Source: an uncultured Oscillospiraceae bacterium
Lineage (GTDB): Bacteria > Bacillota > Clostridia > Oscillospirales > CAG-382
Length of the DNA: 64,000 bases
NCBI GenBank assembly: GCA_964485815.1
Contig: CAZAJX010000001.1
Span: 7,866 to 71,865 of the forward strand
Direction of reading: 5' to 3'
Shown: one piece after another, positions 7,826 through 58,533 of the stretch
Layout of the letters: every line of letters begins with the position of its first letter
Numbering within the stretch: position 1 is the first letter of the stretch
Notes under the pieces: model-generated
The model's database searches: none
What the model was told of the DNA's origin: nothing
What the model saw: the letters and a program-made list of their open reading frames with translations, nothing else
Made by a program: the position numbers and the translations under genes

Positions 7826-7833
7826 AACAGCAC

Positions 7834-7862: not shown

Positions 7863-7868
7863 ACTTAA

Positions 7869-8246: not shown

Positions 8247-8576
8247 TTAGCGGAAAAAGGAAAAAAGATTGCCGAATATCATAAGAACATAAAACGCAAA
8301 AAAAGAATACTGTAACGCTACAAGGCACAGATAATACGTCCAAAAGAGGCTATATCCTATTCCGGCGTATATACCTGCCTTGGACAGAATACTGCCAACC
8401 ATAACCTTGTTACAAGTTACACCGTTATTTTGCGCAAGATAAGCTTTAACCTTTTTCTGAGCGATAATCCCCAAAATAATGCCGGGGAGTCCGTAAGAAG
8501 AAAGCGCCGCAGCCACTATACCCAAAGTCAAAACATTGGACGGAGCGATGGGTTCATTGTTTTTGACATGTTCCAT
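8247..8576 (-). CDS. small multi-pass membrane protein (DUF4190-like), paralog
   Basis: 109 aa. GIILGIIAQKKVK is similar to the neighbouring gene. Confidence 0.5.
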   Translation of the reverse strand: MEHVKNNEPIAPSNVLTLGIVAAALSSYGLPGIILGIIAQKKVKAYLAQNNGVTCNKVMVGSILSKAGIYAGIGYSLFWTYYLCLVALQYSFFAFYVLMIFGNLFSFFR

Positions 8577-9712: not shown

Positions 9713-9769
9713 AAGACTCCGTTTTGGGATTTTTTAAAACTAATAATACCGAAAAAGGCGGTGATAATA

Positions 9770-10735: not shown

Positions 10736-11745
10736 AGGAAGTAGTCCTTATACCGGCGTATAAGCCGGATAACGAAATGTGTAACCTTGCGCGTAAGCTT
10801 CAAAACTGCGGTTTTGACGTTTTGATAGTAAATGACGGAAGCGGCGCCGAATACGATAACGTGTTTTTAAAGGCGTCCGCATTCGCAACGGTGATCTGTC
10901 ATAACAAAAACCAAGGTAAAGGCAGAGCGTTAAAAACGGGAATGGAATACATACGGGATAATTTTAAAGAATGTGAATTCTTTATAACTGCAGATGCTGA
11001 CGGTCAGCACAAATGCAAGGATATTATCCGCGTAGGAGAAGCGTTGAAAAACGGCGCAGAATTTGTACTGACTACCCGTCTGCTTAACAGAAAAATCCCC
11101 AAAAGAAGCAAATTCGGAAACGATCTTTCAAGAGTGATATATACACTTTCAACTGGCAGATATTTCAAAGACAATCAATCCGGACTTCGCGGTTTTTCAG
11201 CAGACAACATTGATTGGCTTTTGAAGGTAAAGGGCGAAAAGTACGATTACGAAATGAATATGCTGTACTATGCCTCAAAGCAAGCCATACCGATCACAAC
11301 TCTTGATATAGAAGCGGTTTATATTGACGGTAATAAATCCTCCCATTTTAATCCCGTAAAGGATACCGCAAGGATATACCGTTTGCTGTTAAAATCCGCA
11401 AAAGCTTCTATTATCACAGCTATTCTTGCCGAGATTGCCATATTTATTTGCGGTCTGGTTACCGACGTACCCTATGACAGTCTTTACGTGCTTACCTCGG
11501 GATTTGCGGCGGCGGTTACAGCTTATGTGATCAACAAATTCTTTATCTTCAAAAACGTTGATTATCGTGACGGAGGCAGAAATATGCTGTACACGGTATT
11601 ACGCTATACGCTGTATGCTTTGGGTACTGCCGTGATCACATCATTTTTACCAATTATACCCCTTTTTGTTGCATTTAATATTTGTGCTCTCATAGGATTA
11701 CCTATACGGTATTTCGTCCACAAATATATTCACGATTTTAATTAA
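10732..11745 (+). CDS. family 2 glycosyltransferase fused to a GtrA-like membrane domain
   Basis: 337 aa. GT2 motifs VNDGSG and DADGQH. The C-terminal half has 4 TM helices typical of GtrA. ATGA overlap with the upstream gene. Confidence 0.7.
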   Translation: MKEVVLIPAYKPDNEMCNLARKLQNCGFDVLIVNDGSGAEYDNVFLKASAFATVICHNKNQGKGRALKTGMEYIRDNFKECEFFITADADGQHKCKDIIRVGEALKNGAEFVLTTRLLNRKIPKRSKFGNDLSRVIYTLSTGRYFKDNQSGLRGFSADNIDWLLKVKGEKYDYEMNMLYYASKQAIPITTLDIEAVYIDGNKSSHFNPVKDTARIYRLLLKSAKASIITAILAEIAIFICGLVTDVPYDSLYVLTSGFAAAVTAYVINKFFIFKNVDYRDGGRNMLYTVLRYTLYALGTAVITSFLPIIPLFVAFNICALIGLPIRYFVHKYIHDFN

Positions 11746-12721
11746 GAGATTTTTCCACAGCGGTATCGAATCCGCTTTCGGAAAGGCGCAAAACCTGTTC
11801 AATACACGAAACTGCGGTGCTGCTGTTGGCGGCACCGTGCATTTTTACTACCGTCTTTTTTGTGCCCAAGAAGGTGGCTCCTCCGCGGGAATTGAAATCA
11901 AACGCCGTATTAAGCTGTTTATAAAGAAATTCGGAAGCTTCGGGGAATTTATCTCCCAATATCTTCTTGCTGATTTCTGCGGCAACCTTTCCGGTCGCCT
12001 CGGTATCCTTAAGCACGATATTTCCCGCAAAGCCATCGCATACCAGCACGTCAGCCTTACCCAAAAGCACATCGCTTCCTTCAAGGTTTCCGATAAAATT
12101 AAGACCTGATGCTTCCAAAAGCGAATAGGTTTCCTTGACTACACCGCTCCCCTTTCCTTTTTCCGTACCCGTGGAAAGGAGGGCTACACGGGGAAGCTCG
12201 ATTCCGTACATACTTCTTATAAATGCGCTTCCCATTTTTGCAAATTCAACGAGATCCTTAGGTGTGCAGTCTACGTTTGCTCCGCAATCCACGAGGCAGA
12301 TATAGCTTCCGTCTACAGCAGGAAGAGAAGATGACAACGCAGGGCGTTTAAGACCTTTTTGCAGACCGAGTCTGCAGATAGTTCCTACCAACAATGCACC
12401 TGTATTCCCTGCAGAGATCATACCGTCGCACTCGTTATCTCTGAGATACTCCAACGCAAGTACCATAGAGCTGTTATCGCATCCGCCGAAAACGCTCATC
12501 GGTGATTGTGTGTTGCTGATATATTCCTTTGTTTCCAGAACGGTATAACGGTCTTCGGTTATACCGTTTTCCGCCATAACGCTGTCGATCACGTTTTTCT
12601 CACCGGAAAAGACGCAAAAAAGGTCACTATGCGATTTCATATATTCGGCGGAACCGCAAACAATGGGTAACGCTCCCTTATCTCCGCCCAGAGTATCTAT
12701 TACGATTTTTTTCATATTCAA
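11738..12721 (-). CDS. plsX: phosphate acyltransferase PlsX
   Basis: 327 aa. Full-length PlsX-like sequence (IVIDTLGGDKG..., ISAGNTGAL, GATFLG). Confidence 0.9.
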   Translation of the reverse strand: MNMKKIVIDTLGGDKGALPIVCGSAEYMKSHSDLFCVFSGEKNVIDSVMAENGITEDRYTVLETKEYISNTQSPMSVFGGCDNSSMVLALEYLRDNECDGMISAGNTGALLVGTICRLGLQKGLKRPALSSSLPAVDGSYICLVDCGANVDCTPKDLVEFAKMGSAFIRSMYGIELPRVALLSTGTEKGKGSGVVKETYSLLEASGLNFIGNLEGSDVLLGKADVLVCDGFAGNIVLKDTEATGKVAAEISKKILGDKFPEASEFLYKQLNTAFDFNSRGGATFLGTKKTVVKMHGAANSSTAVSCIEQVLRLSESGFDTAVEKSLN

Positions 12722-12780
12722 AATTTCCTTTATAAGGTGTTACGGGAATGAGCAAACCTCATTCCCGTTAAATTTTTATA

Positions 12781-14406
12781 TTATTCGATTGCGAGAATAA
12801 AGCTGTAAATATCCTGACCGCCTCTTACATATCCGCATTCAATAAGGGGATATTGGCTTTCCAGTATATCTTTAAGCTGAACCAGCTCGGAGTGTGTTAC
12901 GTCCGCACCGTAGAACACGGTGATAACCTGCTTATCGTCGATATTCTCTAATTTCTCAAGCAAGCCCATAACAGCAGACAGCTTATTTTGGCAGGCACAA
13001 AGGATGTTATCGTCATCCAGACCGATATAATCGCCCTTCTTAACTTCAACACCCGAAATACAGGTGTCCCTTGTAGCAACGGTAACGTATCCCGTCGTAA
13101 CGCATTCCATACTGTCGGTCATACTGTCCGCAACCGCTTCCACCGTATCCAAAGAAAGATCCATCATAGAAAGTGCGGAATATCCTTCGGCAATAGAACG
13201 GGAAGGAATTACGGTTACACGGGCGGAATTATACATTTCCGCCGCTTGCTTTGCAGTCAAGAACACGTTGGAATTGTTGGGAAGTACGATTATATTCTCC
13301 GCATTAAGCTTTCTGAACGCTTTAATAAAATCGTCTGCCGAGGGGTTTTGAGTCTGTCCGCCGTCCACAATAGCGGAAACGCCGATTTCGCTGAAATAGG
13401 ACTTAATTCCGTCGCCTGCGGCAACCGCAACAACTGCATATTTTTCCTTTTCACCGTGCTGCTCGGTAGTTTCGCTGTGCTGAACGGACATATTCTCGAT
13501 CTTTATACTAAGCAATTCGCCATAGCGCAGTCCCAGTTCAAGTACCTTATTGGGTTCAAAGGAGTGTATATGTACCTTTACTATATCGCCGTCCCAAACG
13601 GAGACGATAGAATCACCAAGCTTTTCAAGCTGTGATATAAAATCGCCGTGATCAAAAGCGTTTACATCGGTTTTGGAATTAAGTAAAAGAAGTATAAATT
13701 CGGTACAATAGCCGTATTCGAAAACCGAATCCGCATTAAAGGATGCTGTGAGCGAAGGAGCGAACTCCATTTCGGAAACGCTGACGTTATCTATATATTC
13801 GTTGCGTAATGCGGCCTCCATTCCCTCAAATACGCACAAAACGCCTGCGCCGCCGCTATCAACGACGCCTGCTTCCTTAAGCACGGGAAGAAGCTGAGGT
13901 GTGTTTTCCAGAGAACGGCGTGTTTCGGCACAAAGCTCCGCAAAGCATTCCTGAAAAGATGAATACTTTTCGCAATTCGTAAGGATACGCTTGCCGCCGT
14001 CCTTGAGAACGGAAAGCATAGTGCCCTCTACGGGATTAAGCACCGATCTGTATGCGTACTTTACGCCGGAAGAAAAAGCGAGAGCGAAATCGGAAACCTC
14101 CAAAATGCCCTTGTTTTCACATCCAACGGCAAATCCGCGAATAAACTGTGAAAAGATAACTCCCGAATTACCACGCGCCGACATAAGCGTGTTTTTGGAA
14201 AAACCGATCATATAATCAGATGCATTATCGGTTACGGGTGCGGAAAATCCACCCTCAAATGTCTTTGCCATATTGGAACCCGTATCTCCGTCGGGAACGG
14301 GAAATACGTTAAGGTTATTGATTGTATCCGAATTCAGTTTTAAATTCTTAAAGCCGTTTTCCAACAGAAGCCTTAGTTCGCTTCCGTTTAGTAGGTTTGT
14401 CTGCAT
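12781..14406 (-). CDS. fakA: DAK2-domain fatty acid kinase ATP-binding subunit (FakA / YloV family)
   Basis: 541 aa. The N-terminal DhaL/DAK2 motifs LNVFPVPDGDTGSNM, ARGNSGVIFSQ, PVEGTMLSV and EAGVVDSGG closely parallel S. aureus FakA. Confidence 0.85.
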   Translation of the reverse strand: MQTNLLNGSELRLLLENGFKNLKLNSDTINNLNVFPVPDGDTGSNMAKTFEGGFSAPVTDNASDYMIGFSKNTLMSARGNSGVIFSQFIRGFAVGCENKGILEVSDFALAFSSGVKYAYRSVLNPVEGTMLSVLKDGGKRILTNCEKYSSFQECFAELCAETRRSLENTPQLLPVLKEAGVVDSGGAGVLCVFEGMEAALRNEYIDNVSVSEMEFAPSLTASFNADSVFEYGYCTEFILLLLNSKTDVNAFDHGDFISQLEKLGDSIVSVWDGDIVKVHIHSFEPNKVLELGLRYGELLSIKIENMSVQHSETTEQHGEKEKYAVVAVAAGDGIKSYFSEIGVSAIVDGGQTQNPSADDFIKAFRKLNAENIIVLPNNSNVFLTAKQAAEMYNSARVTVIPSRSIAEGYSALSMMDLSLDTVEAVADSMTDSMECVTTGYVTVATRDTCISGVEVKKGDYIGLDDDNILCACQNKLSAVMGLLEKLENIDDKQVITVFYGADVTHSELVQLKDILESQYPLIECGYVRGGQDIYSFILAIE

Positions 14407-14412
14407 TGTAAT

Positions 14413-15303
14413 TTATTCTTTCCCTTCAATAGTTACGGTCTTGCCGTAAACGTATGTAATAAGAGTACCCGGTCCGACGGATGCGCCCACGATCGGTCCG
14501 ATATTTGTAATATAAACATATTTGAATTTACCCAACGCCAGCACTTCGTCGCGAAGCTTTTCGGCTTCCTCCAAAGCATCGCCGTGGGAAATACACAGTA
14601 TACTGTTTTCTATATCTTCGGCGGCGGCGATAGTATCTTTTGCCATTTCTTTGCGGGCATTTACAGCGCCTTTGACCTTTCTGTAGGCAAAGTTATGCCC
14701 CTTCACATCGGAAATAATAAGAGGCTTTACACCGAAAATATTACCGAAAAATGCGCTGGCGGTGGTTACACGGCCTGCTCTGCGCAGGTATTCAAGACTT
14801 TCCACCGTACCGCATTGATTCACCTTAAGACGGTTTTCCTCTATCCAGCAAGCGATCTGATCTATACTTTTTCCTTCATCCCGCATAAGGGCGGCTTTTA
14901 CCAAAAGCATCCCCTGACCCAAAGAGCTGATAAGCGAATCCACGCAGCATATCTTTGCATCGGGAAAGGCTGGCAAAAGCTCGGAGGCTACTACCTGAGC
15001 AAGTCCCACGGAACCGGACAATCCGGACGAGCAGGATATATACAGTATATCCTTCCCCTGCTCCAGCCAATAAGTGAATACGGAAACGAATTCCCCTCGG
15101 GGGACTTGGGTGGTTTTTATATTCACACCGTTACGCATAAGATCGTAGTATTCCTTTGGTGAATATTCCTCCCAATCAAGGGATGCAGAATGCTCGATAC
15201 CGTCGGCAACGAAATTCATCTTAACGTATTCGATATTATATTTACTGCGTACTTCAGACGGGAGATCACAGGTGGAATCACCGATAATAACAAATTCTTT
15301 CAT
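14413..15303 (-). CDS. DegV family fatty-acid-binding protein (FakB-like)
   Basis: 296 aa. DegV pattern (IIGDSTCDLP, TTQV, SSGLSGS). Confidence 0.85.
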   Translation of the reverse strand: MKEFVIIGDSTCDLPSEVRSKYNIEYVKMNFVADGIEHSASLDWEEYSPKEYYDLMRNGVNIKTTQVPRGEFVSVFTYWLEQGKDILYISCSSGLSGSVGLAQVVASELLPAFPDAKICCVDSLISSLGQGMLLVKAALMRDEGKSIDQIACWIEENRLKVNQCGTVESLEYLRRAGRVTTASAFFGNIFGVKPLIISDVKGHNFAYRKVKGAVNARKEMAKDTIAAAEDIENSILCISHGDALEEAEKLRDEVLALGKFKYVYITNIGPIVGASVGPGTLITYVYGKTVTIEGKE

Positions 15304-15324
15304 ACTATAACGCTCTTTTTAAAA

Positions 15325-16257
15325 TTATTTGCCGGCAATTTTCTGCATTAATGCTTTTTCCTCGGCAAGTCCTTCGGAAATAGGCTTTCCGAGATAGAAA
15401 GCGGCGCACAAGCCGGGACCGATAGACGGACCGCAAGCCATACCGACGTGAGTGATAATAACCTCCTTGGGCTTTATCTCGGTACGGATCATCTCAGCCA
15501 ACGTTTCCGCGGCGGCAAGACGGTTTGAATGAGCGACGAAAACTATATTCTCCTCGGGATTAACTATAGTTTCCTTCATATACTTAACGGTAGCGTCAAG
15601 AGCCGTGCGCTTACCTTTGAATTTAACTATAACCTCTGCAAGACCCTTGGAATTGAAATCTGCCATAGGGTTTACGCCTACGAGAGTTCCGAACAACGCC
15701 TTGAAGTTGGAAATTCTGCCCGTCTTTACAAGGAAAAACAGATCGTCCATAGGACCCATCTGATGAACGGAATTACGAATGCTGTTGATATAATCTGCAG
15801 TTTCTTCTATAGTTGCACCCTCCTGACGTTTCTGTCCCGCAAGAACGGTGAGCAACGCCATAGACGTGGAATAACGGAGAGAATCCACGCATATGATCTT
15901 TCTGCCGGGATACTTTTTCATAAGATCATCGGCAATACGCAGGCAAAGGCTGTACGTGCCGGAAAGGGCGGATGAAATGGAGATGCTGAGTATATCCTTC
16001 CCCTGCGCCAGATACTTTTCGTACACCTCGTAGCCTTCCTGCTCGGTAAAGGTGGAGGTTTTATACAGCACGTTTCTGCCGCTCATAGACTTATAGAATT
16101 CCTCAGGAGAAACAATTCCCCAATCTAGATCGGCGTACTCGGTATGTCCGTCAGGAAAATACACCGTGCCGTGGAGGTAATCGGGAATATCGAAACGTTC
16201 TCTCAGTTCTGCGGTGAGATCACAAGCACTATCGGGAATGATAACAAAATCGCTCAT
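15325..16257 (-). CDS. DegV family fatty-acid-binding protein (FakB-like), second paralog
   Basis: The internal ATG at 16257 gives MSDFVIIPDSACDL. DegV pattern throughout. Confidence 0.85.
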   Translation of the reverse strand: MSDFVIIPDSACDLTAELRERFDIPDYLHGTVYFPDGHTEYADLDWGIVSPEEFYKSMSGRNVLYKTSTFTEQEGYEVYEKYLAQGKDILSISISSALSGTYSLCLRIADDLMKKYPGRKIICVDSLRYSTSMALLTVLAGQKRQEGATIEETADYINSIRNSVHQMGPMDDLFFLVKTGRISNFKALFGTLVGVNPMADFNSKGLAEVIVKFKGKRTALDATVKYMKETIVNPEENIVFVAHSNRLAAAETLAEMIRTEIKPKEVIITHVGMACGPSIGPGLCAAFYLGKPISEGLAEEKALMQKIAGK

Positions 16258-16437
16258 TACGTCATATCCTTTCAAAAAATACTCTAACGGAGTGATTATA
16301 ACACAGACACATACTTTTTTCAACAAAAAAACACTTTTTTATTAAAATATATATTGGAAAAACCGAAAAGATATGTTATAATTCATATGCGCTGTTTGGA
16401 AACCAAACATAAAAATGCGTTTACGGAGGAAACAGAT

Positions 16438-17391
16438 TTGCTTTATTTGTATATTGTTCTCGGCGTTATTGCATTAAGCGCTGTAATCGGCGTAGCCGTA
16501 ATGCTGAAAATAACCGTACCGATCTCAAAGCAGGTGTACCAAAATACTTTGGTGCGCAATTCACCCGATAAATGGAAAAGAGAGTGCTCCTGTCCCGAAA
16601 ACGAGGAGCAAATGGAAATGTGGAACACCGGCTGTGCCTGGGCGGAAGAAAACAAAGACCGTATGCGTGAGGTTTCAATAACCAACGACGGACTTAAGCT
16701 TGTGGGTGAGCTGTACGATTTCGGTTCTGACAAATGTGTGATCATTCTTCCCGGCAGATGCGAAAGCCTTATGTATTCTTATTACTACGCCCGCCCCTAC
16801 GGTGAAATGGGTATAAACGTTTTCCTGCCCGACCCCAGAAGCCACGGCAACAGCGAAGGTATATACAGCACGCTGGGTGTTTGCGAAGGTAAAGATACTA
16901 ACGCCTGGGCAAGATATCTCAACGAAAACGAAGGTATTAACGAAGTATATCTCCACGGCGTATGCGTAGGCGCCAGTACCGCAATTTTTGCCGCGGTGGA
17001 CGTAGATATGCCCAAGTGCATAAAAGGTATGGTAAACGAAGGCTGCTACGTTAATTTCTATGAAACCTTCAAGAATCATATGATCGCAGACGGACATCCC
17101 GTGTTCCCCGTATGCGGAATGGTAATGCGTCAGGTAAAAAAGCATACCGGCGTAGATATTATGAAAAAGTGTCCTCTTAATTACGTTGGCAAGGTAAAAA
17201 TACCCGTGCTGTTTATATTCGGTGAAAAGGATATTTACACCGTACCCGAAAAGAGCAAGATATTGTTTGCTGCTTGCGGCAGCGAGGACAAGAAGCTGGT
17301 ATGGTTCCCTAAGGGCGGACACAGCCATCTGCGTATAAACAACACCGCCGAATACGATAATGCGGTAAAAGAATTCATACAGTCACATTAA
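16438..17391 (+). CDS. alpha/beta hydrolase with N-terminal signal-anchor
   Basis: In-frame TTG at 16438 lies 7 nt after GGAGG and gives an N-terminal TM helix (LYLYIVLGVIALSAVIG). Nucleophile-elbow region HGVCVGAS, C-terminal GGHSH. The start choice is uncertain; the ORF opens at 16354. Confidence 0.6.
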   Translation: MLYLYIVLGVIALSAVIGVAVMLKITVPISKQVYQNTLVRNSPDKWKRECSCPENEEQMEMWNTGCAWAEENKDRMREVSITNDGLKLVGELYDFGSDKCVIILPGRCESLMYSYYYARPYGEMGINVFLPDPRSHGNSEGIYSTLGVCEGKDTNAWARYLNENEGINEVYLHGVCVGASTAIFAAVDVDMPKCIKGMVNEGCYVNFYETFKNHMIADGHPVFPVCGMVMRQVKKHTGVDIMKKCPLNYVGKVKIPVLFIFGEKDIYTVPEKSKILFAACGSEDKKLVWFPKGGHSHLRINNTAEYDNAVKEFIQSH

Positions 17392-17398
17392 AACAAAA

Positions 17399-17430
17399 AC
17401 ATCCGATAAATTCAAAATTTATCGGATGTT
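17399..17430. terminator. bidirectional intrinsic terminator
   Basis: ACATCCGATAAA-TTCAAAA-TTTATCGGATGT is flanked by A and T runs and lies between convergent genes. Confidence 0.7.
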
Positions 17431-17435
17431 TATTT

Positions 17436-17810
17436 TTATTTGTTTTTTTGAAAAAAAGGATGCTCTCTGCCAAAAGCACAATCGTAAACGAAATGTTCAC
17501 AGTTGTTTTCAAGGATATTATATCCCGTTTCCCCAAGTCTGCTTTTTGCGCGGGACACGGCTTTCTCGGGCGGGAACCTTTTTTTGCGCTCGCTCTTTTC
17601 GGTAACGCCCGTTTCGCATATCCCTTCGCCGATAAAGGTATAGATATCCGTTGACAGAACGCATATTTCCTCGGGACCTACGCCTGAATTATCGGGATAT
17701 CCGAATTGGATTACGGTGTTATCGTCAACGTATATGCCGTAATGATAATAAAACTTAACCTTTACACGGATAATATCTCCGTATTCAGGCAAAGTGGTTT
17801 TCCAGATCAT
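17436..17810 (-). CDS. LRAT / PLAAT (H-Rev107, NlpC/P60 superfamily) phospholipase-acyltransferase-like protein
   Basis: 124 aa. Has the conserved His context (YHYGIYV) and the catalytic Cys motif NCEHFV typical of LRAT-family enzymes. Confidence 0.7.
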   Translation of the reverse strand: MIWKTTLPEYGDIIRVKVKFYYHYGIYVDDNTVIQFGYPDNSGVGPEEICVLSTDIYTFIGEGICETGVTEKSERKKRFPPEKAVSRAKSRLGETGYNILENNCEHFVYDCAFGREHPFFQKNK

Positions 17811-18046
17811 TTTATTTTTTCTTCCACCTTACGCACAATATCCCCTACGGTCTTAAGTTCGGGAAGATCGGAATTGGTGAATCTTACTCCAAACTCCTGC
17901 TCTATTCCCATCGCCATATACAGCATACCGATAGAGTTCATTCCCAAACCGTCGGAAAGAGTATCGGATTCGGTAATGCGGGAGGAATCGATCTCTCCTT
18001 CAAAAACGTTATCGAATATTTTTTTAAGACGTTCGAGAGTGTTCAT
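17807..18046 (-). CDS. acyl carrier protein (stand-alone)
   Basis: 79 aa, acidic. Phosphopantetheine-attachment-like LGMNSIGMLYM. 4-nt overlap with the downstream gene. Confidence 0.7.
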   Translation of the reverse strand: MNTLERLKKIFDNVFEGEIDSSRITESDTLSDGLGMNSIGMLYMAMGIEQEFGVRFTNSDLPELKTVGDIVRKVEEKIK

Positions 18047-18047
18047 T

Positions 18048-18719
18048 TTATTCTCCTTTCAAAGCTTGCACATATACTTCACGGCAAGCGTTGATCTTTT
18101 CCAAAAGCAATGCGGAAACGTTGTTTATATCTCCCACGGAGGGGAACTTCTTTTTACAATGATCCGCAGGATAAAAAGGATCGCCTACAACGTACAATCT
18201 TTTTCTCATTCCCGCGGACGGTCTTGAGTACACGGGGATTATAGGCGCACCGCTTTGCAAAGCGATAAGAACGGCGCCGGATTTGATATCAGACATACCG
18301 TCCTCTCTTTCAATTCTGCCCTGCGGAAAAATTGCGAGAACGTGGCCGTTTTTTATAACCGAAACCGATTTGCGCACGGCCTCGATATCGGAAATACCGC
18401 GGTCAATTTTAATGCATCCCATAAGCTTTAACAGAAAGGAGAGAATTCCCTTTGACATTACTTCTTCGGAAGCAAGGAAGAAAACTCTTCTGTACCAAAA
18501 ACAGCTTCCCAACAAAAGTGCATCTGAAAATCCGGTATGGTTTGCCGCGATCAAAGCGCCGCCTTTAAAGTTTCGCTTGTACTTCTTTCCATCAAGTCCT
18601 ATGGCGCGCACCTTGAAAAGGCGGACCACAAAATAGTGAAGCCTGCCGTAATCCATAGGCAAAAACTTTGGATTAAACAATGAAAAAAACTTATTTTTTG
18701 CCATTTTCTTTTTCCACAC
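18048..18719 (-). CDS. PlsC/LPLAT-family acyltransferase
   Basis: 223 aa. HX4D motif NHTGFSD, FPQGRIE motif, PIIPV motif. Confidence 0.75.
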   Translation of the reverse strand: MWKKKMAKNKFFSLFNPKFLPMDYGRLHYFVVRLFKVRAIGLDGKKYKRNFKGGALIAANHTGFSDALLLGSCFWYRRVFFLASEEVMSKGILSFLLKLMGCIKIDRGISDIEAVRKSVSVIKNGHVLAIFPQGRIEREDGMSDIKSGAVLIALQSGAPIIPVYSRPSAGMRKRLYVVGDPFYPADHCKKKFPSVGDINNVSALLLEKINACREVYVQALKGE

Positions 18720-19353
18720 GTCTTTTTAATTCTTCACCCAATTCCATTGTCTTGTCCTCCAACAGCTTGGTAAGACGAGTTATCTCCTCGGGAGAAGGAT
18801 TTTCCTCTTTGCAATAATCACGAATATATATCTTTTCGCCGATCATTACTCGGGTGCGGTTCTTGAAGGAATATGCTCCGTCGGTATACATAGGAACTAT
18901 AGGTGCATCGGTACGCAAAGCGATGATCACCACGCTGGGCTTAAAGGGCCAGGGCTTTCCGTCAACGGGAAGGCGGCTTTCGGGAAAAATTCCGATAGTT
19001 CCGCCGTTATCCAGCACTTTTAAGGATTCGGCTATGAAGGAAAGATCTCTCGTATCGCGGTTAACGAAAATTCCGCCGATGGCAAACAGAAACTTTGAGA
19101 ACATTTTTCCCTTGTTAAACATAACCTCCGCAATCAAAAAACGCAGAGTGCGGAAAGGAAATATATTCATATACAGCACAAAATCCATTAAGGACTTGTG
19201 GTTTGACATCAGTATACAAGGCTTGGGAAGCTTTTTACCTTGGGATTCCTTGTTAATATAATACAGCTTGGGACGGAGAAAAATTCTGGTGGGAATAAAG
19301 CCCGTAAGCTGAACGAAAGCGCGTACAAATTGGTTGGGTTTGCCTTGGCGCAT
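18691..19353 (-). CDS. PlsC/LPLAT-family acyltransferase (second)
   Basis: 220 aa. HX4D motif NHKSLMD, FPESRL motif, PIVPM motif. Overlaps the next gene by 29 nt. Confidence 0.75.
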   Translation of the reverse strand: MRQGKPNQFVRAFVQLTGFIPTRIFLRPKLYYINKESQGKKLPKPCILMSNHKSLMDFVLYMNIFPFRTLRFLIAEVMFNKGKMFSKFLFAIGGIFVNRDTRDLSFIAESLKVLDNGGTIGIFPESRLPVDGKPWPFKPSVVIIALRTDAPIVPMYTDGAYSFKNRTRVMIGEKIYIRDYCKEENPSPEEITRLTKLLEDKTMELGEELKRRVEKENGKK

Positions 19354-19356
19354 AGG

Positions 19357-21303
19357 TCAGATCTGCCTTTCTATGTATTCGCAAAAATCGCGTAAAGTAT
19401 AGAAATAATTGTTTGAATCGGAATAATCTATGGGGAATTCCTTTGAAAGCTCGGTGAGCAGAGTAAAATACTGCAAGGAAGAAGCACCAAGCTCGTGCAT
19501 AACGTGAGTATCGGGACCGATATCCTCTTTTTCAACGCCGAGTATGGGAGCAGCTATGGTACGTACCTTATCGGCAAGAGGGGAATTGACATCAAACTCT
19601 GCGGCTTCCTTTATCTCCACCTCGTTAAAGGGGATAAGCTTTACTCTGCCGTCTGCAAGGGCGTTTTTAAGATATTTTCTGCCTACCTTTATTGCAGTTT
19701 CGGATGCGATGGGATCGTATGTCATATAAAAATCACGTATCTGCATAGGAAGCGGCAAGGATTGGTTGGTCTTATAAATATTGGAAATAAGGTTGGAAAC
19801 CTTCGCACCGCGCAAATAGGGGCTGATGCGGACGATCATAGTAAGCTTTTCATCGCTTCCCTCTCCCAATCCAAGGACGGAATACATCATAGCCTCGGGG
19901 AGATCAAACGCCTGCTCGATGGTATCGGGATTAAGATTTTCGCCGTTTTCGCCGATAACCGAATCGCCTTTTCTGCCGCGGATGTAATAATATCCGTCAA
20001 CACAATCAACGATATCGCCTGTATTGTACCAACCCTCGTTAAGCTTTTCGACACCGTTTACAAGCATACGCTTGCAGGTGGAATTGCCCTTGATAAGTAG
20101 CACGCCGTTTTCATCGATCTTATATTCAATAGATGCAAAGGGCTTGCCTACGCTGTTTTGCATAAGCTCGGAGGGCTTATTGCGAAGCTCGGTAGAGGTT
20201 ATACCCACCTCGCTCATTCCGTAACCGTTGTGCAAGGGATAGCCGATAGCGGAAAACAGACGGAGGGTGGATTCCTTTATATAGCTGCCGCCGGAAATGC
20301 AGTAACGCACGGTGGGACCGAACAGTTTATCGGTAACCTCGGTCATAAGCTTACGGGACAGCCAGTTTCCCAAAGCGGGGCTTATATTCTGAACCTTAAG
20401 GCAGATAGCGGTACCCTTTTCAAAGCGTTTTCTTGTTTTCTCATCTTTATTGTTTATCTCACGCATTACCTGCTTTTCGATAGTATGCCACAGCAAGGGC
20501 ACGGCAAAAACGTGGGTAACCTCGTGGGCACGGCAGGTCTTCATCAACGTTTCGCCCGACATATCTCTGGGGAATACCATTGTATTCCAATAAAATGCAT
20601 GCCAGAAATAAACGGCGATGAGTCCGAAAACGTGATAAAAAGGAAGGAAGCATATCTGCTTTAATCTGCCGTTTACGTGAACGGCGATATTCATGTTCTC
20701 CTCAAACATAGGTCCTGCGTTAAGGACCTGCTCGCTTATTTCGTTACCGGTGTAAAAGCAAACAACCTGATTAAGTGTAGTCGCCGAAGTGGACAAAGCG
20801 ATCTCGTCCTCAAAGCAATCCACAAAATCGCTGCCTTCGGGAAGCGCGGTAATGTCAATAAACTCACCGGGAAGAGATGTGCTCTTCATACCGATAACGT
20901 ATTTTATATTAAGCGTTTCAATTAGTCCTGCGGACATATGGAGAGGATGGCGGCGGTTTACCAGATAAGGCTTGTTTCCGCTGCGGAGAATTGCCCAGAA
21001 AGCGACAATCCATTCAAGGCAGTTATCCATATCCAAAGCAACGTATCCGTGAGTAGCACCGATATGGGCATAAAGGGACTCGGAAGTACGGCGGATCATT
21101 TCTTTTACCTCGCCGTATGTATGCTCGTGAATTCTAAATCCGTCGCCGGTTTCCGCAGCTATTGCCGTGGGGTTGCTGAACATGATCTCATAAACCGATT
21201 TAAAGCTTTTATCCGATGCATTAAGCGCTTTAATATTGTTTTTTACCAGCTTGAGATAATCTTTGAGGTATTTTTTCATTTTCATACAACTCCGTATTGA
21301 CAA
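19357..21303 (-). CDS. AMP-binding (adenylate-forming) enzyme with C-terminal carrier-protein domain
   Basis: 648 aa. Adenylation-core motifs GYGMSEVG, YNTGDIV and GRKGDSVIGENGENLNPDTIE. The C-terminal ~80 aa carry a LGASSLQYF Ppant-site-like motif. The P-loop-equivalent region reads STSATTLNQ, which is degenerate versus TSGTTGxPK. Confidence 0.7.
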   Translation of the reverse strand: MSIRSCMKMKKYLKDYLKLVKNNIKALNASDKSFKSVYEIMFSNPTAIAAETGDGFRIHEHTYGEVKEMIRRTSESLYAHIGATHGYVALDMDNCLEWIVAFWAILRSGNKPYLVNRRHPLHMSAGLIETLNIKYVIGMKSTSLPGEFIDITALPEGSDFVDCFEDEIALSTSATTLNQVVCFYTGNEISEQVLNAGPMFEENMNIAVHVNGRLKQICFLPFYHVFGLIAVYFWHAFYWNTMVFPRDMSGETLMKTCRAHEVTHVFAVPLLWHTIEKQVMREINNKDEKTRKRFEKGTAICLKVQNISPALGNWLSRKLMTEVTDKLFGPTVRYCISGGSYIKESTLRLFSAIGYPLHNGYGMSEVGITSTELRNKPSELMQNSVGKPFASIEYKIDENGVLLIKGNSTCKRMLVNGVEKLNEGWYNTGDIVDCVDGYYYIRGRKGDSVIGENGENLNPDTIEQAFDLPEAMMYSVLGLGEGSDEKLTMIVRISPYLRGAKVSNLISNIYKTNQSLPLPMQIRDFYMTYDPIASETAIKVGRKYLKNALADGRVKLIPFNEVEIKEAAEFDVNSPLADKVRTIAAPILGVEKEDIGPDTHVMHELGASSLQYFTLLTELSKEFPIDYSDSNNYFYTLRDFCEYIERQI

Positions 21304-21444
21304 AATATCTTTATTATTTTATACAAAACCCGTATAATTGTCAATAGATACGACAGCAAAAAGTTTTTGAGACACCTTGATTTTTTACGAATTATATGTT
21401 AACATAAGCGTAGCATACAAAATCCACATTACAGGAGTACAACT

Positions 21445-22806
21445 ATGAAGAAAATCATTGCCGTACTGCTTGTTGCAGTACTCACCCTTTCCATCGTTGC
21501 ATGCGGCGGAAACGAAACTTCCGATACGGACAGATCCAAGCCCGAAGCAAGCGAAACCGTTAGCGGCGAATCCGAAGGCAACGAATCCGTTGACGGTGAA
21601 TCCCAGCCTTCCGATGGATCCGTTCCTGAGGACGAGTCTGATCCCGAAGACGAATCCGTCCCCGAGGATGAATCTCAGCCCGAGGACGAATCCACACCCG
21701 AAGATACCGAAGCCATCCCTGCATTTGCTTCCAATTTTGTTACTTGGGCAAGCTTGGGTGTAGGACTCCGCGCTACCGACAGCACGTCTATTCAGCTTAC
21801 CGGTGTAAACAAAGAAGCCGGCTACGGCGACATAATAATTTATACATACGATTACGCACAGGACAAGGTAACCGTTAAGGACGGTAAATATGCTGATTAC
21901 GCTTACCTCGTTGCAGAGTATGATTCTTCCCTCTTCGGTGTAAAGAAGACAGGATTTTTTGCTGCAGGCTCTCTTTCCGATAACGCTTTCCTTACCATTC
22001 CCGACGTAGGCTTTATTATTGCCGCACACAAGGATCAGACGGTTATGGCTGCAAGACTCAGCGAATGTCCCGATGATGTTACACTGTTTGCCGCCGGCGT
22101 CCAGGTTTGCGACGTTAACTATTCTATCACCAAGGTTAACTCCGCTATCACTATCGACGGTAATATAGAAGACGCTTGGAAACAGCACAAGATAGATTCC
22201 ATAAACGAATCCAACAACAAGTGGGCTTACTGGAGCTTTGTTGAAAATGAGTATTATTCCACTGCGGAATACTACGTTACCTATGACAATGATAACCTTT
22301 ACCTGGCAGTAGTTGTTGATTCTCCTTATCACTATTGCCCCATATCCCCCTCCGAACCCGGCGGAATGTACCAATACGAATGTATTCAGGTAAAAGTTAC
22401 CACTGTCAGCCCCAAATCCGAATATATTATGGAGAATTACGATCACGTTATCAATAACGCGGCTAATACCGACGGATACGTTCGCGCTTACGGATTTGCC
22501 GTAAATGATGACGGTGAGACCTGCTACTACGAAAACAGCGGTGTAAGCAAGACCTTCCGGGGTAAGGCCGTATGTACAAGAAATGACGATGCACAGCTTA
22601 CCGTTTACGAAGTATCCATTCCCTGGTCTTCTCTCGACCTTACTGTTGCCGAGCTTGATACGTTCGGTCTGACCTTCTCTATCAACTCCACAAACGAAGA
22701 AGATGTTGAAAAAGGAACCTGGAGAAACCTGGTTCTGTTTGACGGCGGCGGAGTTATAAAGCGTAACGACTGGGCAAAAATTCCCGAAGTTACTATAGTT
22801 CACTAA
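21445..22806 (+). CDS. lipoprotein with acidic PEDES repeats and a CBM9/DOMON-like carbohydrate-binding domain
   Basis: Signal peptide plus lipobox (LSIVAC). Tandem [S/D/V/Q/T]PEDES repeats are encoded at about 21625-21708. ITIDGNIEDAWK is typical of CBM9-like modules. Terminator downstream. Confidence 0.65.
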   Translation: MKKIIAVLLVAVLTLSIVACGGNETSDTDRSKPEASETVSGESEGNESVDGESQPSDGSVPEDESDPEDESVPEDESQPEDESTPEDTEAIPAFASNFVTWASLGVGLRATDSTSIQLTGVNKEAGYGDIIIYTYDYAQDKVTVKDGKYADYAYLVAEYDSSLFGVKKTGFFAAGSLSDNAFLTIPDVGFIIAAHKDQTVMAARLSECPDDVTLFAAGVQVCDVNYSITKVNSAITIDGNIEDAWKQHKIDSINESNNKWAYWSFVENEYYSTAEYYVTYDNDNLYLAVVVDSPYHYCPISPSEPGGMYQYECIQVKVTTVSPKSEYIMENYDHVINNAANTDGYVRAYGFAVNDDGETCYYENSGVSKTFRGKAVCTRNDDAQLTVYEVSIPWSSLDLTVAELDTFGLTFSINSTNEEDVEKGTWRNLVLFDGGGVIKRNDWAKIPEVTIVH

Positions 22807-22881: not shown

Positions 22882-24183
22882 TTACTTAACGTCCTCTTCG
22901 TTGAACACATCTCCGCACTCGGGACAGAACTTGGGAGGCTTTGCGGGATCCTCAGGCTCCCAACCGCATTTGTCGCACTTATAAAGGAGTGCGCCCGCAG
23001 GCTTTTTGCTTCCGCACTCGGAGCAGAATTTACCTTTGTTCTCGGCGCCGCAAGAGCATTTCCAACTGTCGGTTCCGGGCTTCTTGCTTCCGCATTCAGT
23101 ACAGAATTTGCCGGTTGCAACGTTACCGCAGGTACACTTCCAACCGTTTGCGTTTGCAGTTACAGGCTGAGGCTTTTCACCCATTGCATAAAGATTTGCG
23201 GGATTTGCGGCGTTACCTGTGTTCATCGCCATGCCCATTCCCATAAAGCCCGTCATTGCGCCGGCGGAATTGTTTGCCGCTGCCTCCATAGCAGATGCCT
23301 GGGACTGAACGAGAGTAGCCGCAGCCATAGTAGGATCGCGAAGGATTGCGGCGCGCTGTGCATCGGTAATTATCTTCGCCTGATCCTCGGGCAGATCGAT
23401 AGGATTAAGAGCAACGCTCTTTACCTCAATACCTCTGCCGTTTTTCCATTCATCGGAAAGCTGGTTGCGAAGCTCGTCCTCTATCTCCTGCGTATGAGCA
23501 GTTATTGCGGAGGGACGGATGCCCAGCGCAGAAAGCTTACCGATAGAGGGAGTAAGTGCAGACACGAATTCACGGCGCATCTGGGAATCCAGATCATCTC
23601 TTGTATACTCTTCGGAAACGTTTCCGGCAATCTTCGAATAAAATATAATGGGATCGCAGATCACATAAGAATATGTGCCCGAGCATCTTATAGATACGTC
23701 GATATCCAGATTAATATTAACATCTACCACTCTGAATGGAATGGGATTGATGGTTCCGAATTTATTATTGAGAATTTCCTTGGTGTTGAAATAATAAACA
23801 CGCTGATCCTTGCCCGTATCACCACCATAGGTAAAGCGTTTTCCAAGAACCTTGAAGGTGTTCAAAAGACTTTCACCGAACTTGCCGGAGAAAATACTGG
23901 GCTCCGTTGAAGAATCATAGGTGTATTCGCCGGGCTCCGCACAGATATCCACTACCTTGCCCTGCTCAACTATTACCATACACTGTCCGTCAGCTACGGC
24001 GATGCCCGATCCGTTTGAGATAATATTATCGCTTGCTTTTGTGTTTGAAGATCTTCCGCTTATGCGTTTTGCGCCTTTGCGCATAAGAACATCGTTTTCC
24101 AAAGCATCACAATAGAAAAACTCTTTCCATTGATCTGCCAGAGTTCCGCCAAGTGCGCCGATTCCTGCTTTAATAAGTCCCAT
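22882..24183 (-). CDS. SPFH/Band-7 domain protein with C-terminal triple zinc-ribbon (COG4260-type)
   Basis: 433 aa. N-terminus MGLIKAGIGALGG..DQWKEFF, SPFH core, Ala/Met/Gly-rich linker, then three CxxC...CxxCG ribbons (WKCTCG..FCTECG, WKCSCG..FCSECG, YKCDKCG..FCPECG). Confidence 0.75.
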   Translation of the reverse strand: MGLIKAGIGALGGTLADQWKEFFYCDALENDVLMRKGAKRISGRSSNTKASDNIISNGSGIAVADGQCMVIVEQGKVVDICAEPGEYTYDSSTEPSIFSGKFGESLLNTFKVLGKRFTYGGDTGKDQRVYYFNTKEILNNKFGTINPIPFRVVDVNINLDIDVSIRCSGTYSYVICDPIIFYSKIAGNVSEEYTRDDLDSQMRREFVSALTPSIGKLSALGIRPSAITAHTQEIEDELRNQLSDEWKNGRGIEVKSVALNPIDLPEDQAKIITDAQRAAILRDPTMAAATLVQSQASAMEAAANNSAGAMTGFMGMGMAMNTGNAANPANLYAMGEKPQPVTANANGWKCTCGNVATGKFCTECGSKKPGTDSWKCSCGAENKGKFCSECGSKKPAGALLYKCDKCGWEPEDPAKPPKFCPECGDVFNEEDVK

Positions 24184-25447: not shown

Positions 25448-25519
25448 TTGTTGACAAAACTTCGAATATGTGGTAAAAATATTATAGAGTTATTTTACGT
25501 TTACAGAGGTGATAAAGCA

Positions 25520-26371
25520 ATGAATATCGGTCTTGTCTTATCCGGCGGAATGTCGAGAGGCGCTTATCAGTTCGGAGCGCTCCGTGCAATACGTGAGTAT
25601 ATTGAGCCGCAAGACATTAAATATATAAGCGCTGCTTCTATCGGAACTTTGAACGCCTATGCTTTTTCATCCGATAATCTGGAAGTCGGCGGATTTATGT
25701 GGCACTCTATCAATCTTACACACACGAGAGTGCTGGTAACCACAATTTTGCGTAGCGAGTTTCTTACCGAAGTTATACGCCGTCTTGCAAAAAAAGAAGC
25801 AAAATGCGAAAAAATGTACGTTCCGTTTATCAACCTGCGGAACAGAAGCATTTTTTACACGGATATTGCTCACAAAAACGGTGAAGAGTTGAAAGAACAT
25901 CTCGCCGCAGCCGTGGCAATGCCGGGAATTAACCACCCCGTTATGATAAACGAGCTTAATCTTTATGACGGCGCGGTAGTGGATAACATACCGGTTTTTC
26001 CCTTAATGCAGCTTAATCTGGATTATATTATCTGTATCCATTTCGACGATTACAACTATACGTTTGAATCTCAGTATTTTGATAATAAAATAGTTAAGAT
26101 CAACTTTTCCGGTGATAACAAGATATCGGATTCAATGTGGTTTACAAGAAGCGACGTTAAGGAAATGGAAGAACAAGGCTACAGAAAAGCGAAAGCTATA
26201 ATGGACTTTGTATTCGCTGACGGAATGGAAAACACAGAAGCCATATACAACAAGATCGAAGCGTTGAATGCGATGAATTCCCACAAGATACGCCGCACCA
26301 CCTCCGATATTATAAACGATAATTTTGATAAGCTTAAAAAGCGACTTGCCAAGAGAAAGATTGTTGAATAA
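25520..26371 (+). CDS. patatin-like phospholipase
   Basis: The ATG at 25520 gives MNIGLVLSGGMSRGAYQFG (GGxxRG oxyanion motif). AASIG nucleophile motif; DGAVVDN catalytic Asp motif. Confidence 0.8.
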   Translation: MNIGLVLSGGMSRGAYQFGALRAIREYIEPQDIKYISAASIGTLNAYAFSSDNLEVGGFMWHSINLTHTRVLVTTILRSEFLTEVIRRLAKKEAKCEKMYVPFINLRNRSIFYTDIAHKNGEELKEHLAAAVAMPGINHPVMINELNLYDGAVVDNIPVFPLMQLNLDYIICIHFDDYNYTFESQYFDNKIVKINFSGDNKISDSMWFTRSDVKEMEEQGYRKAKAIMDFVFADGMENTEAIYNKIEALNAMNSHKIRRTTSDIINDNFDKLKKRLAKRKIVE

Positions 26372-26572: not shown

Positions 26573-27280
26573 ATGGAACTTAACATATTAAGCTTTAATA
26601 CCCAACATTGTATGAACTATATTACCCGCAAGATTGATTACGAATCCGTTGCGAATCTGATAAAAGAATTGGACGCGGATATTATCGGTCTTAACGAAAT
26701 GCGGGGCGTCGGTGAATTGGAAGGCTATGAAGCCCAAATGGAGATTCTGGCTGCTCTTACCGGATACCACTATTATTTCGCTCCCGCGCTTCTTGTCTGC
26801 GGAACCAGTGAATACGGAAACGGAATATTATCAAAATACCCCATAAAAAGCGCACAAAAGATAATGATTTCCGATCCCGAAACAAAAAGCGGACACCAGC
26901 ATTACGAAACCAGATGTATACTTAAAGCGGAAATAAATGTAGATGCCGGACTTACCGTTTTGGTATCTCACTTTGGTTTGAACCTTGATGAGCGTGTGAA
27001 TGCCGTGAAAACGCTTATACCTGCTCTGGAAAAAGAGAAATGTGTTTTTATGGGAGATCTTAACACTACGCCCGAAGAACCAGTTCTTAACGATATCCGC
27101 GCCCATATGAAGGATGCCGATGATATGTTAAGCGGAAAGCTGCTTTCTTTTCCCTCGGATAAACCGGAAATGAAGATCGATTATATCTTCGTATCCCCCG
27201 ATATAAAAATAAAATATGCGGACATACCTGCAAAGATCGTTTCCGATCACAGACCCTATATTGCTAAAATAGAAATATAA
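26573..27280 (+). CDS. endonuclease/exonuclease/phosphatase (EEP) family protein
   Basis: 235 aa. EEP-like motifs (ILSFN, GLNEM, GDLN, SDHRP). Confidence 0.75.
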   Translation: MELNILSFNTQHCMNYITRKIDYESVANLIKELDADIIGLNEMRGVGELEGYEAQMEILAALTGYHYYFAPALLVCGTSEYGNGILSKYPIKSAQKIMISDPETKSGHQHYETRCILKAEINVDAGLTVLVSHFGLNLDERVNAVKTLIPALEKEKCVFMGDLNTTPEEPVLNDIRAHMKDADDMLSGKLLSFPSDKPEMKIDYIFVSPDIKIKYADIPAKIVSDHRPYIAKIEI

Positions 27281-58531: not shown

Positions 58532-58533
58532 TT

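Follow-up and report, generated by a model that had tools for sequence, protein, structure and literature searches.

We report here a five-gene operon of gut Clostridia. On balance, it probably encodes a self-contained system that depends on carrier proteins, activates scavenged fatty acids and adds two or three acyl chains to a glycerolipid backbone. The operon occupies positions 17436–21279 on the minus strand of a 64-kb stretch of DNA from an uncultured Oscillospiraceae bacterium (contig CAZAJX010000001.1; the whole stretch is called the window below). Its genes, which are tightly packed between a promoter-like site at one end and a bidirectional hairpin at the other, encode an adenylating enzyme with a fused carrier (LIG), two PlsC/Aas-type acyltransferases (AT1 and AT2), a free-standing carrier (ACP) and a Cys-His enzyme of the PLAAT/LRAT fold (LRAT). 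Direct observation covers the domains and their intact catalytic motifs, the order and fusions of the genes, and their genomic linkage. No description of the operon was found in full-text literature searches, in agreement with an earlier reading of the DNA made without database searches (the sequence-only reading), which had not recognized the gene combination as a described pathway.

Organization of the operon

LIG (640 aa; PF00501 and PF00550) is encoded at 19357–21279. The mechanically called open reading frame (ORF) spans 19357–21303 and opens at TTG 21303; we place the true start at ATG 21279 instead, because homologues are 640 aa long and a GGAG lies 10 nt upstream. The remaining genes, all on the minus strand, are AT1 (18691–19353; 220 aa, PF01553), AT2 (18048–18719; PF01553, with an alternative ATG start at 18704), ACP (17807–18046; 79 aa, PF00550; ACP2 below where it is set against the fused carrier, ACP1) and LRAT (17436–17810; 124 aa, PF04970). 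Spacing is +3 nt between LIG and AT1, −29 nt between AT1 and AT2 with the GTG start of AT2 (−14 nt with the ATG at 18704), +1 nt between AT2 and ACP and −4 nt between ACP and LRAT.

A putative sigma-70-like promoter (TTGACA-17 nt-TAAAAT, 21316–21344, minus strand), which is a consensus match only, agrees with the consensus at 11 of 12 positions and lies 5' of LIG. A bidirectional intrinsic-terminator-like hairpin with a 16-bp stem and T-runs on both strands (17397–17431) is common to the operon and a convergent hydrolase gene. All five proteins are predicted to be cytoplasmic, with neither signal peptide nor transmembrane segment; AT1 and AT2 are strongly basic (isoelectric points 9.8 and 9.9), and ACP is acidic (4.6). 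The sequence-only reading had described five packed minus-strand genes with gaps of −29 to +3 nt ending at a bidirectional terminator. These ORFs and the hairpin are present as it described them, every motif it quoted was re-read from the DNA, and Pfam agrees with its list of parts.

Conservation of the gene set

In a genome scan with one genome per species, relatives of LIG were found in at least 479 species, and 80 loci were kept with flanks of approximately 10 kb. Downstream genes were counted only at loci whose contig reached far enough. All 80 loci are from metagenome-assembled genomes (MAGs) of Clostridia (among others Oscillospiraceae, Acutalibacteraceae, Lachnospiraceae, Ruminococcaceae and Faecousia), and most were recovered from the guts of ruminants or other animals; a homology search started from a Lachnospiraceae member likewise returned MAGs only and no cultured host. 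Identity to the window LIG ranges from 45 to 91%. AT1 is present in 76/76 loci, AT2 in 74/74, ACP in 72/72 and LRAT in 55/69, and the order LIG-AT1-AT2-ACP is colinear in every one of the 72 genomes with enough flank. At 15 loci a single protein of 422–451 aa combines AT1 and AT2, which is evidence of their joint action. Because gene order is held across proteins that are only 45–55% identical, the five-gene set is a conserved unit and not a chance neighborhood. Co-conservation, on which the sequence-only reading had made its proposal depend, is thus strong.

The wider LIG family, obtained by a profile search of 1.84 billion representatives at E ≤ 1e-30, comprises 637 representatives at 50% identity, and its gene contexts were read from distant members at 30–35% identity and 44 metagenome loci. 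Fuller modules in this family carry on one strand LIG1-ACP1 (the counterpart of LIG), AT1, AT2, a second, FACS-like ligase (LIG2), ACP2, LRAT, a phosphopantetheinyl transferase (PPTase), an esterase, FakB, a GPH-type transporter and FakA. The order LIG1-AT-AT-LIG2-ACP-LRAT-(PPTase)-alpha/beta hydrolase-DegV-MFS-FakA on a single strand is found in L109, L111, L112, L118, L121, L122 and L131. Among wider-family loci with enough flank, at least two acyltransferases follow LIG in 34/35, a free carrier is present in 23/28, LRAT in 19/28, LIG2 in 15/28, an MFS_2/GPH-type transporter in 12/28, a PPTase in 10/28 and Fak genes in 22/30. LIG2 is a FACS/Aas-like ligase of approximately 500 aa (PRK06187, 1.5e-59; PRK06814, 1.5e-37) encoded directly before the free carrier. 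Other arrangements include FakA-LIG-(AT-LRAT fusion)-DegV-alpha/beta hydrolase-Zn-ribbon protein-monogalactosyldiacylglycerol-synthase-type glycosyltransferase (GT)-GT21 in L091 and L092, and a cluster that ends with a PPTase in place of LRAT (L094).

The window operon is a reduced form of this larger module, since fuller relatives carry a second ligase for the free carrier. Within 7 kb, neither LIG2 nor the MFS_2/GPH transporter occurs in any of the 80 loci of the window clade. PlsX was found only beside clusters that lack LIG2 (6/13 versus 0/15; Fisher p = 0.005, not corrected for shared ancestry), so that LIG2 and PlsX appear to be alternatives.

Two relatives of LIG, P0356 (1087 aa, L083 8001–11264) and P0422, are ANL-ACP-alpha-oxoamine-synthase fusions that include a class I/II aminotransferase fold. 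P0356 stands alone in a Firmicute-like context, with no other lipid genes nearby. Alpha-oxoamine synthase-type enzymes condense acyl thioesters with amino acids, and these fusions may serve the synthesis of amino-lipids or sphingoid-like bases.

The ligase LIG

LIG matches PF00501 (4.6e-31) and, over residues 578–644, PF00550 (1.8e-07). The AlphaFold2 (AF2) model has a mean predicted local distance difference test score (pLDDT) of 87 and shows the didomain fold of an adenylation domain followed by a peptidyl carrier protein (A-PCP), with a Foldseek E of 1e-26 against ANL structures. The best fold matches are the A-PCP didomain of carboxylic acid reductase (CAR), MenE, McyG A-PCP and EntE-EntB, all at ≤19% identity. 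In keeping with the two-domain fold of the ANL superfamily, FLPFYHVFG, NGYGMSE, TGD, GRxGD...GENxNPD and K532 are invariant or nearly so; among relatives, motifs A4, A5, A7 and A8 do not vary, nor do the A10 lysine and the serine of the carrier. Re-reading the DNA gave STSATTLNQ, FLPFYHVFGL, the A10 lysine within AIKVGR and, in the carrier, ELGASSL. The fused carrier domain is encoded at 19360–19581 (minus strand), with the codon of the invariant Ser602 (ELGASSL) at 19477–19479.

The P-loop (A3 motif; 20767–20793, minus strand) is translated as STSATTLNQ in place of the Gly-rich TSGTTGxPK, and contains neither Gly nor Lys. In the AF2 model it forms a loop between two strands and has the lowest confidence of the N-domain. 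S166 and T168 are invariant, and SAT(S/T)(L/M) was found in 66 of the 68 motifs read in the 80 related genomes. The degenerate P-loop pointed out in the sequence-only reading is therefore real, being seen in the DNA, placed at the loop position by the model and kept across the clade. Its suggested value as a sign of an atypical mechanism was not supported. In an alignment of the best 150 relatives, P-loops of the LIG1 family form a continuum from canonical TSGTTGKPK through MSSGTSxxxK to the TSATTLNQ of the window while the other motifs are fixed; judged from these sequences, degeneracy is a labile trait of the whole LIG1 family, not a unique signal of mechanism. Within the family, adenylating enzymes thus form a natural series of P-loop decay with retention of all other motifs. 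We also considered whether the P-loop decays where LIG2 is lost or Fak genes are present, and rejected this: degenerate loops occur with and without LIG2, and canonical loops also occur without it.

Searches of PDB sequences and with Foldseek gave no assignment of LIG to FAAL, AasS or FACS, and returned generic ANL matches at ≤19% identity. The AasS structure 8i35 ranks 32nd among the fold matches (15% identity), behind CAR, MenE, McyG and EntE, and the Aas model PRK06814 matches LIG at 1e-08 with 34 bits against a cut-off of 1349. The comparison with FAAL, AasS and Aas, from which the sequence-only reading had expected guidance, thus placed LIG with neither FAAL nor AasS.

Acyltransferases and the free carrier

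AT1 and AT2 are paralogues (31% identity) that match PF01553 at 1.1e-18 and 6.6e-21. Thermotoga maritima PlsC (5KYM) is the sole PDB match of both and the best match of AT1 (5.4e-12). The HX4D sites are HKSLMD in AT1 (19183–19200) and HTGFSD in AT2 (18522–18539). AT1 also has the conserved motifs SNHxSLxDF, GxIxVxR and FPxxRLP, and HX4D together with motifs II–IV, as in the LPLAT fold of PlsC, is kept in 76–79 AT sequences. Judged from aligned ranges, the N-terminal region ahead of HX4D is approximately 25–30 residues shorter than in 5KYM. Both proteins score best against PlsC and the acyltransferase domain of Aas among NCBIfam models (AT2 versus Aas-type PRK08633, 8.8e-19). With 60.0 bits for AT1 and 72.1 bits for AT2, they stay below the PlsC cut-off of 102.95 bits (TIGR00530, AGP_acyltrn).

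ACP matches PF00550 (1.1e-09) and has a conserved serine, Ser38, in GLGMNSI (codon 17933–17935). It scores 30.1 bits against the AcpP equivalog TIGR00517 (cut-off 70.45), and 40.8 against a cut-off of 71 for the best subfamily model; by these scores we classify ACP as a carrier other than AcpP. Descent of the free ACP and the LIG-fused carrier from a duplication was considered and rejected, as the two have no detectable sequence similarity.

The PLAAT-fold enzyme

LRAT matches PF04970 at 1.6e-21 (77 bits; cut-off 24.3) and aligns with human PLAAT3 at 3.1e-09. The AF2 model (pLDDT 90.7) has only PLAAT/HRASLS proteins as its ten best PDB matches, with TM-scores of 0.72–0.80 and 25–30% identity for the seven best. 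His23 and Cys104 (NCEHF) are invariant in 60 sequences. The third residue of the catalytic triad, Gln35 in the window, is Gln in more than 90% of the window clade; among distant operon-linked homologues, several have His at this position, L100 has Glu and L111 has Ala. A hydrophobic C-terminal segment that could serve as membrane anchor is absent. These results bear out the assignment to the LRAT family, with its His and the Cys of NCEHF, that had been made by eye.

The gene is optional in the clade and always follows the free carrier. In relatives it is fused to an acyltransferase (L091 and L092) or to a PPTase (L111). Because LRAT follows the free carrier, is fused to LPLAT or PPTase domains and has no membrane anchor, its acyl donor is probably a carrier thioester, not a phospholipid ester. 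The sequence-only reading had proposed that LRAT deacylates a phospholipid in a Lands-type cycle; nothing we found supports this, and the optional gene, its position and its fusions point to acyl-carrier thioesters instead. Acyl-carrier thioesters are not known to serve as donors within the PLAAT family. Human PLAAT/HRASLS and LRAT proteins share the fold and the His and NCEHF Cys with the bacterial enzyme, and several bacterial lineages also have the His third residue of PLAAT3. The window enzyme differs in its missing C-terminal membrane anchor, in the Gln third residue of its clade, in the placement of its gene after a carrier and the LPLAT and PPTase fusions, and in its probable acyl-carrier donor as against a phospholipid ester. 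Full-text literature searches returned no description of the function of bacterial LRAT/PLAAT proteins. The operon gives them a concrete, testable genomic context, and suggests acyl-carrier proteins as a new class of donor.

The LRAT family falls within the NlpC/P60 superfamily (PMC10318531), and an LRAT-like protein could in principle be a cell-wall hydrolase that stands next to the carrier gene by coincidence. We regard this as extremely unlikely, as had to be settled for the sequence-only reading, which would have fallen with a peptidoglycan hydrolase. The protein has neither a signal peptide nor a transmembrane segment, MepS/Spr matches its model only at E ~ 1 whereas the ten best matches are all PLAAT/HRASLS, and its gene shares 4 nt with the end of ACP. 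It is moreover kept after the carrier gene in 55/69 loci of the clade and in 19/28 wider-family loci, and is fused to LPLAT and to PPTase domains in relatives.

In L111, a single ORF (5785–6825) encodes an LRAT domain together with a 4'-phosphopantetheinyl transferase domain; this is the protein with Ala at the third triad position.

Linkage to fatty acid kinase genes

The operon forms the end of a 12.5-kb lipid block (8732–21303). Convergent with it is a membrane-anchored alpha/beta hydrolase (16354–17391, plus strand; Hydrolase_4; transmembrane residues 26–59; true start probably downstream of 16354), whose family is found near LIG in 19 of 37 full-flank loci and which has a 38%-identical orthologue inside the L091 operon. 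Beyond it, on the minus strand, lie two DegV/FakB fatty-acid-binding proteins (15325–16326, probable start 16257, and 14413–15303), a FakA-type fatty acid kinase catalytic subunit (12781–14406) and the phosphate acyltransferase PlsX (11738–12721). All are above curated cut-offs, as expected for members of the fatty acid kinase system: the DegV/FakB proteins have 186 and 210 bits against 99.7 for TIGR00762, FakA has 537 bits against 396 for YloV (FakA_VfrB, 1.8e-134), and PlsX has 271 bits against 243 for TIGR00182.

PlsX is present in 29/37 full-flank loci, and 36/37 have one or more Fak or PlsX genes inside the 7-kb flanks, arranged in 11 architectures. More loosely associated are a lysophospholipase-L2-like hydrolase (8732–9712, minus strand), a membrane-anchored hydrolase (9620–10735, plus strand) and a polyprenyl-phosphate-type GT2 (10732–11745, plus strand), whose families stand beside plsX in 29–36 of the 80 loci. 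Clustering of flank ORFs over the 80 loci recovered an Sfp-type PPTase in 30, three hydrolases in 28–31, GT2 in 36, small Zn-ribbon/transmembrane proteins in 33 and a CE4 deacetylase in 13. No fab gene was found in the 64-kb window or among the conserved neighbors. The lipid role suggested in the sequence-only reading is strongly backed by FakA, FakB, PlsX and the lipase-like hydrolases, and by the transporter and diacylglycerol glycosyltransferase genes of distant relatives.

Proposed function and alternatives

We propose that LIG adenylates a fatty acid and thioesterifies its fused carrier, ACP1. ACP2 would be phosphopantetheinylated by an Sfp-type PPTase and, in fuller relatives, loaded by the FACS-like LIG2; in the window clade, which is without LIG2, it would probably be loaded by LIG in trans, or by FakAB and PlsX via acyl-phosphate. 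The basic, peripheral AT1 and AT2 would then pass carrier-bound acyl chains to two positions of a glycerol-based acceptor, for which glycerol-3-phosphate, a lysolipid or an imported deacylated backbone are candidates and a glycolipid or a head-group is also possible. The optional PLAAT-fold enzyme may form an acyl-cysteine from acyl-carrier and hand the chain to a third acceptor site or, in an editing role, to water. Together with the neighboring esterases, FakA/FakB and PlsX, the system would make membrane lipid from environmental fatty acids, the free acids being scavenged or recycled. In this scheme the fatty-acid substrate, the nature of the acceptor, its pairing with donors and the part played by LRAT are inferred.

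Such a module would perform carrier-dependent salvage of fatty acids into lipids, and would resemble Aas/LplT in its working and not as a member of that family. E. coli LplT/Aas is a lipid salvage system that couples ligase, carrier and LPLAT. In Aas with LplT, and in the fusions of MFS, LPLAT and acyl-ACP synthetase (PRK08043, PRK08633, PRK06814), an ANL enzyme is likewise coupled to an LPLAT via a carrier thioester; AT1 and AT2 match the acyltransferase domain of Aas, and relatives of the operon add an MFS transporter. In contrast to these systems, the operon has separate proteins, its own fused and free carriers instead of AcpP and two acyltransferases instead of one; its family adds a PLAAT-fold enzyme and a PPTase, the transporter is of the MFS_2/GPH and not the LplT type, and all scores against Aas models are far below the equivalog cut-offs. 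The analogy to Aas drawn in the sequence-only reading accordingly survives for the mode of working and for the acyltransferases, which score best against PlsC/Aas domains, and does not extend to LIG, whose sequence and fold are no closer to AasS or Aas than to other ANL enzymes. Its remodeling idea is supported in part, as regards a lipid or fatty-acid role; the Lands-cycle role of LRAT is not supported.

Chlamydia AasC and LpaT are an acyl-ACP synthetase and a lysophospholipid acyltransferase that are split, have adjacent genes and incorporate scavenged fatty acids. They differ from the operon in using the housekeeping ACP and one acyltransferase, with no dedicated carriers, LRAT or Fak linkage. 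The Firmicutes FakA/FakB-PlsX-PlsY-PlsC route has the same apparent purpose: FakA, two FakB and PlsX adjoin the operon and lie inside it in relatives, and the acyltransferases are PlsC-like. Here the differences are the ATP-dependent ligases and private carriers that the operon adds, and the scores of AT1 and AT2 below the AGP_acyltrn cut-off. The operon adds parts that none of Aas/LplT, AasC/LpaT and Fak-PlsX-PlsC has. In Myxococcus ElbD and the acyltransferases of aryl-polyene clusters, a dedicated ANL enzyme and ACP hand an acyl chain to LPLAT/AGPAT-type domains for special lipids; these systems have reductase or polyketide synthase parts and belong to other phyla, and they have neither Fak linkage nor an LRAT enzyme. 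A fatty-acid-amide pathway of gut Clostridia consists of the adenylation enzyme OaaA, OaaACP and the condensation domain OaaC (PMC13310621). Compared by description, it shares with the operon a free-standing fatty-acid-adenylating enzyme and a dedicated ACP, and is unlike it in that a nonribosomal peptide synthetase condensation domain forms an amide with a small amine, whereas the operon has two LPLATs and LRAT and no condensation domain (PMC13310621).

Several observations weigh against the proposed function. The fold of LIG is generic ANL, with AasS and FadD13 no closer than MenE, the CAR A-domain and aryl-acid ligases, and because identity to these is ≤19%, fatty-acid specificity is predicted for LIG from genomic context only (Fak, PlsX, the LPLATs and the FACS-like LIG2). 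With a P-loop devoid of every Gly and Lys, adenylation may be weak or altered. Both acyltransferases and ACP fall under the NCBIfam equivalog cut-offs for PlsC, Aas and AcpP, and the statistics of Fak/PlsX linkage are not corrected for shared ancestry. Judged by the GT genes and GPH-type transporter of relatives, the acceptor could equally be a glycolipid or glycoside or a phospholipid, and lipid acylation itself is a predicted function.

A special case of the proposed function that names the acceptor is salvage of backbones: esterases would strip dietary or host lipids, the GPH/MFS_2 protein would import the deacylated or lyso backbone (e.g., a glycerophosphodiester, a lysophospholipid or glycosyl-glycerol from plant galactolipid), and AT1 and AT2 would restore acyl chains at its two glycerol positions, the ligases determining which fatty acids are used. 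The two acyltransferases that are always present and sometimes fused, the membrane-anchored and lysophospholipase-L2-like hydrolases nearby and the rumen and hindgut habitats of the MAGs are all in line with this, as is the finding that 12/28 wider-family loci encode the transporter within the operon, where its gene directly follows LIG or separates FakB from FakA. The eukaryotic lysophosphatidylcholine carrier Mfsd2a is also an MFS_2 protein, and LplT/Aas provides a precedent in E. coli. We nevertheless consider this narrower version doubtful, given that no such transporter lies within 7 kb in the 80 window-clade loci and that those of relatives match GPH sugar carriers weakly (35–49 bits; cut-off 231). 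Equally tentative is the possibility that the operon makes a specialized acylated metabolite or envelope lipid, in the manner of secondary metabolism and not of bulk membrane synthesis, with one or more ligases selecting particular acids for activation and the acyltransferases and LRAT decorating a glycolipid, a lipoteichoic-acid anchor, a head-group (e.g., N-acyl-phosphatidylethanolamine or acyl-phosphatidylglycerol) or a small molecule. PLAAT enzymes are known to make N-acyl-phosphatidylethanolamine. Dedicated carriers other than AcpP with an Sfp-type PPTase, three transferases for two carriers, GT2, GT28 and GT21 genes in or beside the operon of relatives, the CE4 deacetylase at 13 loci, the restriction of the system to particular lineages and the precedent of a free-standing adenylation-ACP lipid pathway in gut Clostridia (PMC13310621) would all fit. 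The tight and repeated linkage to FakA, FakB and PlsX, which feed bulk phospholipid synthesis, argues against it, as do the lack of conserved condensation, tailoring or export genes and the best matches of the acyltransferases, PlsC and Aas.

A plainer explanation is housekeeping: in fatty-acid-auxotrophic Clostridia without type II fatty acid synthesis (FASII), AT1 or AT2 would be the sole PlsC, ACP the general carrier and LIG an ordinary acyl-ACP synthetase. The PlsC-like acyltransferases, the plsX gene flanked by fakA and fakB and not by fab or acpP genes, and the absence of fab genes from the window and the conserved neighbors speak for it. It is nonetheless quite improbable, because ACP reaches 30 bits where AcpP requires 70, ACP proteins are just 35–60% identical among relatives whose LIG is ~50% identical, the co-located PPTase is Sfp-type and not AcpS-type, the acyltransferases (60 and 72 bits) are below the AGP_acyltrn cut-off of 103, and the two ligases, two carriers and LRAT of relatives exceed the needs of PlsC plus ACP. 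At the other extreme, the module could be an assembly line for whole glycerolipids in gut Clostridia that is based on carrier proteins and independent of CoA and FASII. Two dedicated LPLATs and a bacterial thiol acyltransferase of the PLAAT type, the latter with an acyl-carrier thioester as donor, would be supplied by two ligases and two private carriers. They would rebuild di- or triacylated lipid on a backbone of dietary or host origin that is imported in deacylated form; in the window clade, LIG2 would be replaced by FakAB and PlsX, or acyl-phosphate would be used directly by the P-loop-less ligase. That all these parts hold jointly is rather unlikely.

If the proposed carrier-dependent acylation of glycerolipids is true, many gut anaerobes use an unrecognized ATP-driven, carrier-based route alongside fatty acid kinase to bring dietary and host fatty acids into their membranes. 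This would bear on fatty-acid toxicity and the ecology of biohydrogenation in ruminants, on whether drugs targeted at FASII spare or hit gut commensals, and on bacterial lipids that reach the host. The module and its wider family were recovered from the rumen, the hindgut and the guts of humans and termites, nearly always from uncultured organisms, and their genes are annotated just as "AMP-binding protein" or "acyltransferase".

Other features of the window

Outside the lipid block the window is unrelated in content, and no Rfam families or tRNAs were found in its 64 kb. At the far end of the block, 7869–8210 and 8247–8576 (minus strand) encode small membrane proteins of a kind that often has an N-terminal zinc ribbon or a Pro/Gln-rich region; such proteins adjoin the LIG operon in 33/80 genomes, and a Zn-ribbon protein is encoded inside the L091 operon (7558–8121). 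Divergent from LIG is a lipoprotein gene (21445–22806, plus strand; isoelectric point 4.1; repeats rich in E, D, S and P), which, with 4/80 loci, is restricted to close relatives and so falls outside the module; the 472-aa ORF overlapping it on the other strand is probably spurious. Two genes from the operon, an SPFH/Band-7 protein with C-terminal zinc-ribbon-like CxxC repeats (22882–24183, minus strand) is likewise kept in close relatives only. Approximately 4 kb from the operon, a patatin-like phospholipase (25448–26371) is followed by an endonuclease/exonuclease/phosphatase-family protein (26573–27280), and the same pair is found in L081 (97% identical LIG), the one close relative read for it.

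A defense and restriction-modification island at 32724–37663 encodes, on the minus strand, an ApeA-like HEPN protein (32724–34151), two C5 cytosine methylases (34091–35041 and 36593–37663) and a FokI/AlwI-type endonuclease (35041–36600). A small integrated element by dapF (38563–45091), with a D5_N/NrS-1-type primase-helicase (38563–40857), a phage capsid protein (42180–43187) and a large serine recombinase (43442–45091), may be a phage satellite or remnant. Three M42 glutamyl-aminopeptidase paralogues are encoded in tandem at 3543–6587, with genes that overlap or abut, and a complete operon for shikimate and aromatic amino-acid synthesis lies at 54991–63009. A type I dockerin at the C-terminus of a DUF4127 protein (53083–54864) suggests a cellulosome-bearing, Ruminococcus-like host.

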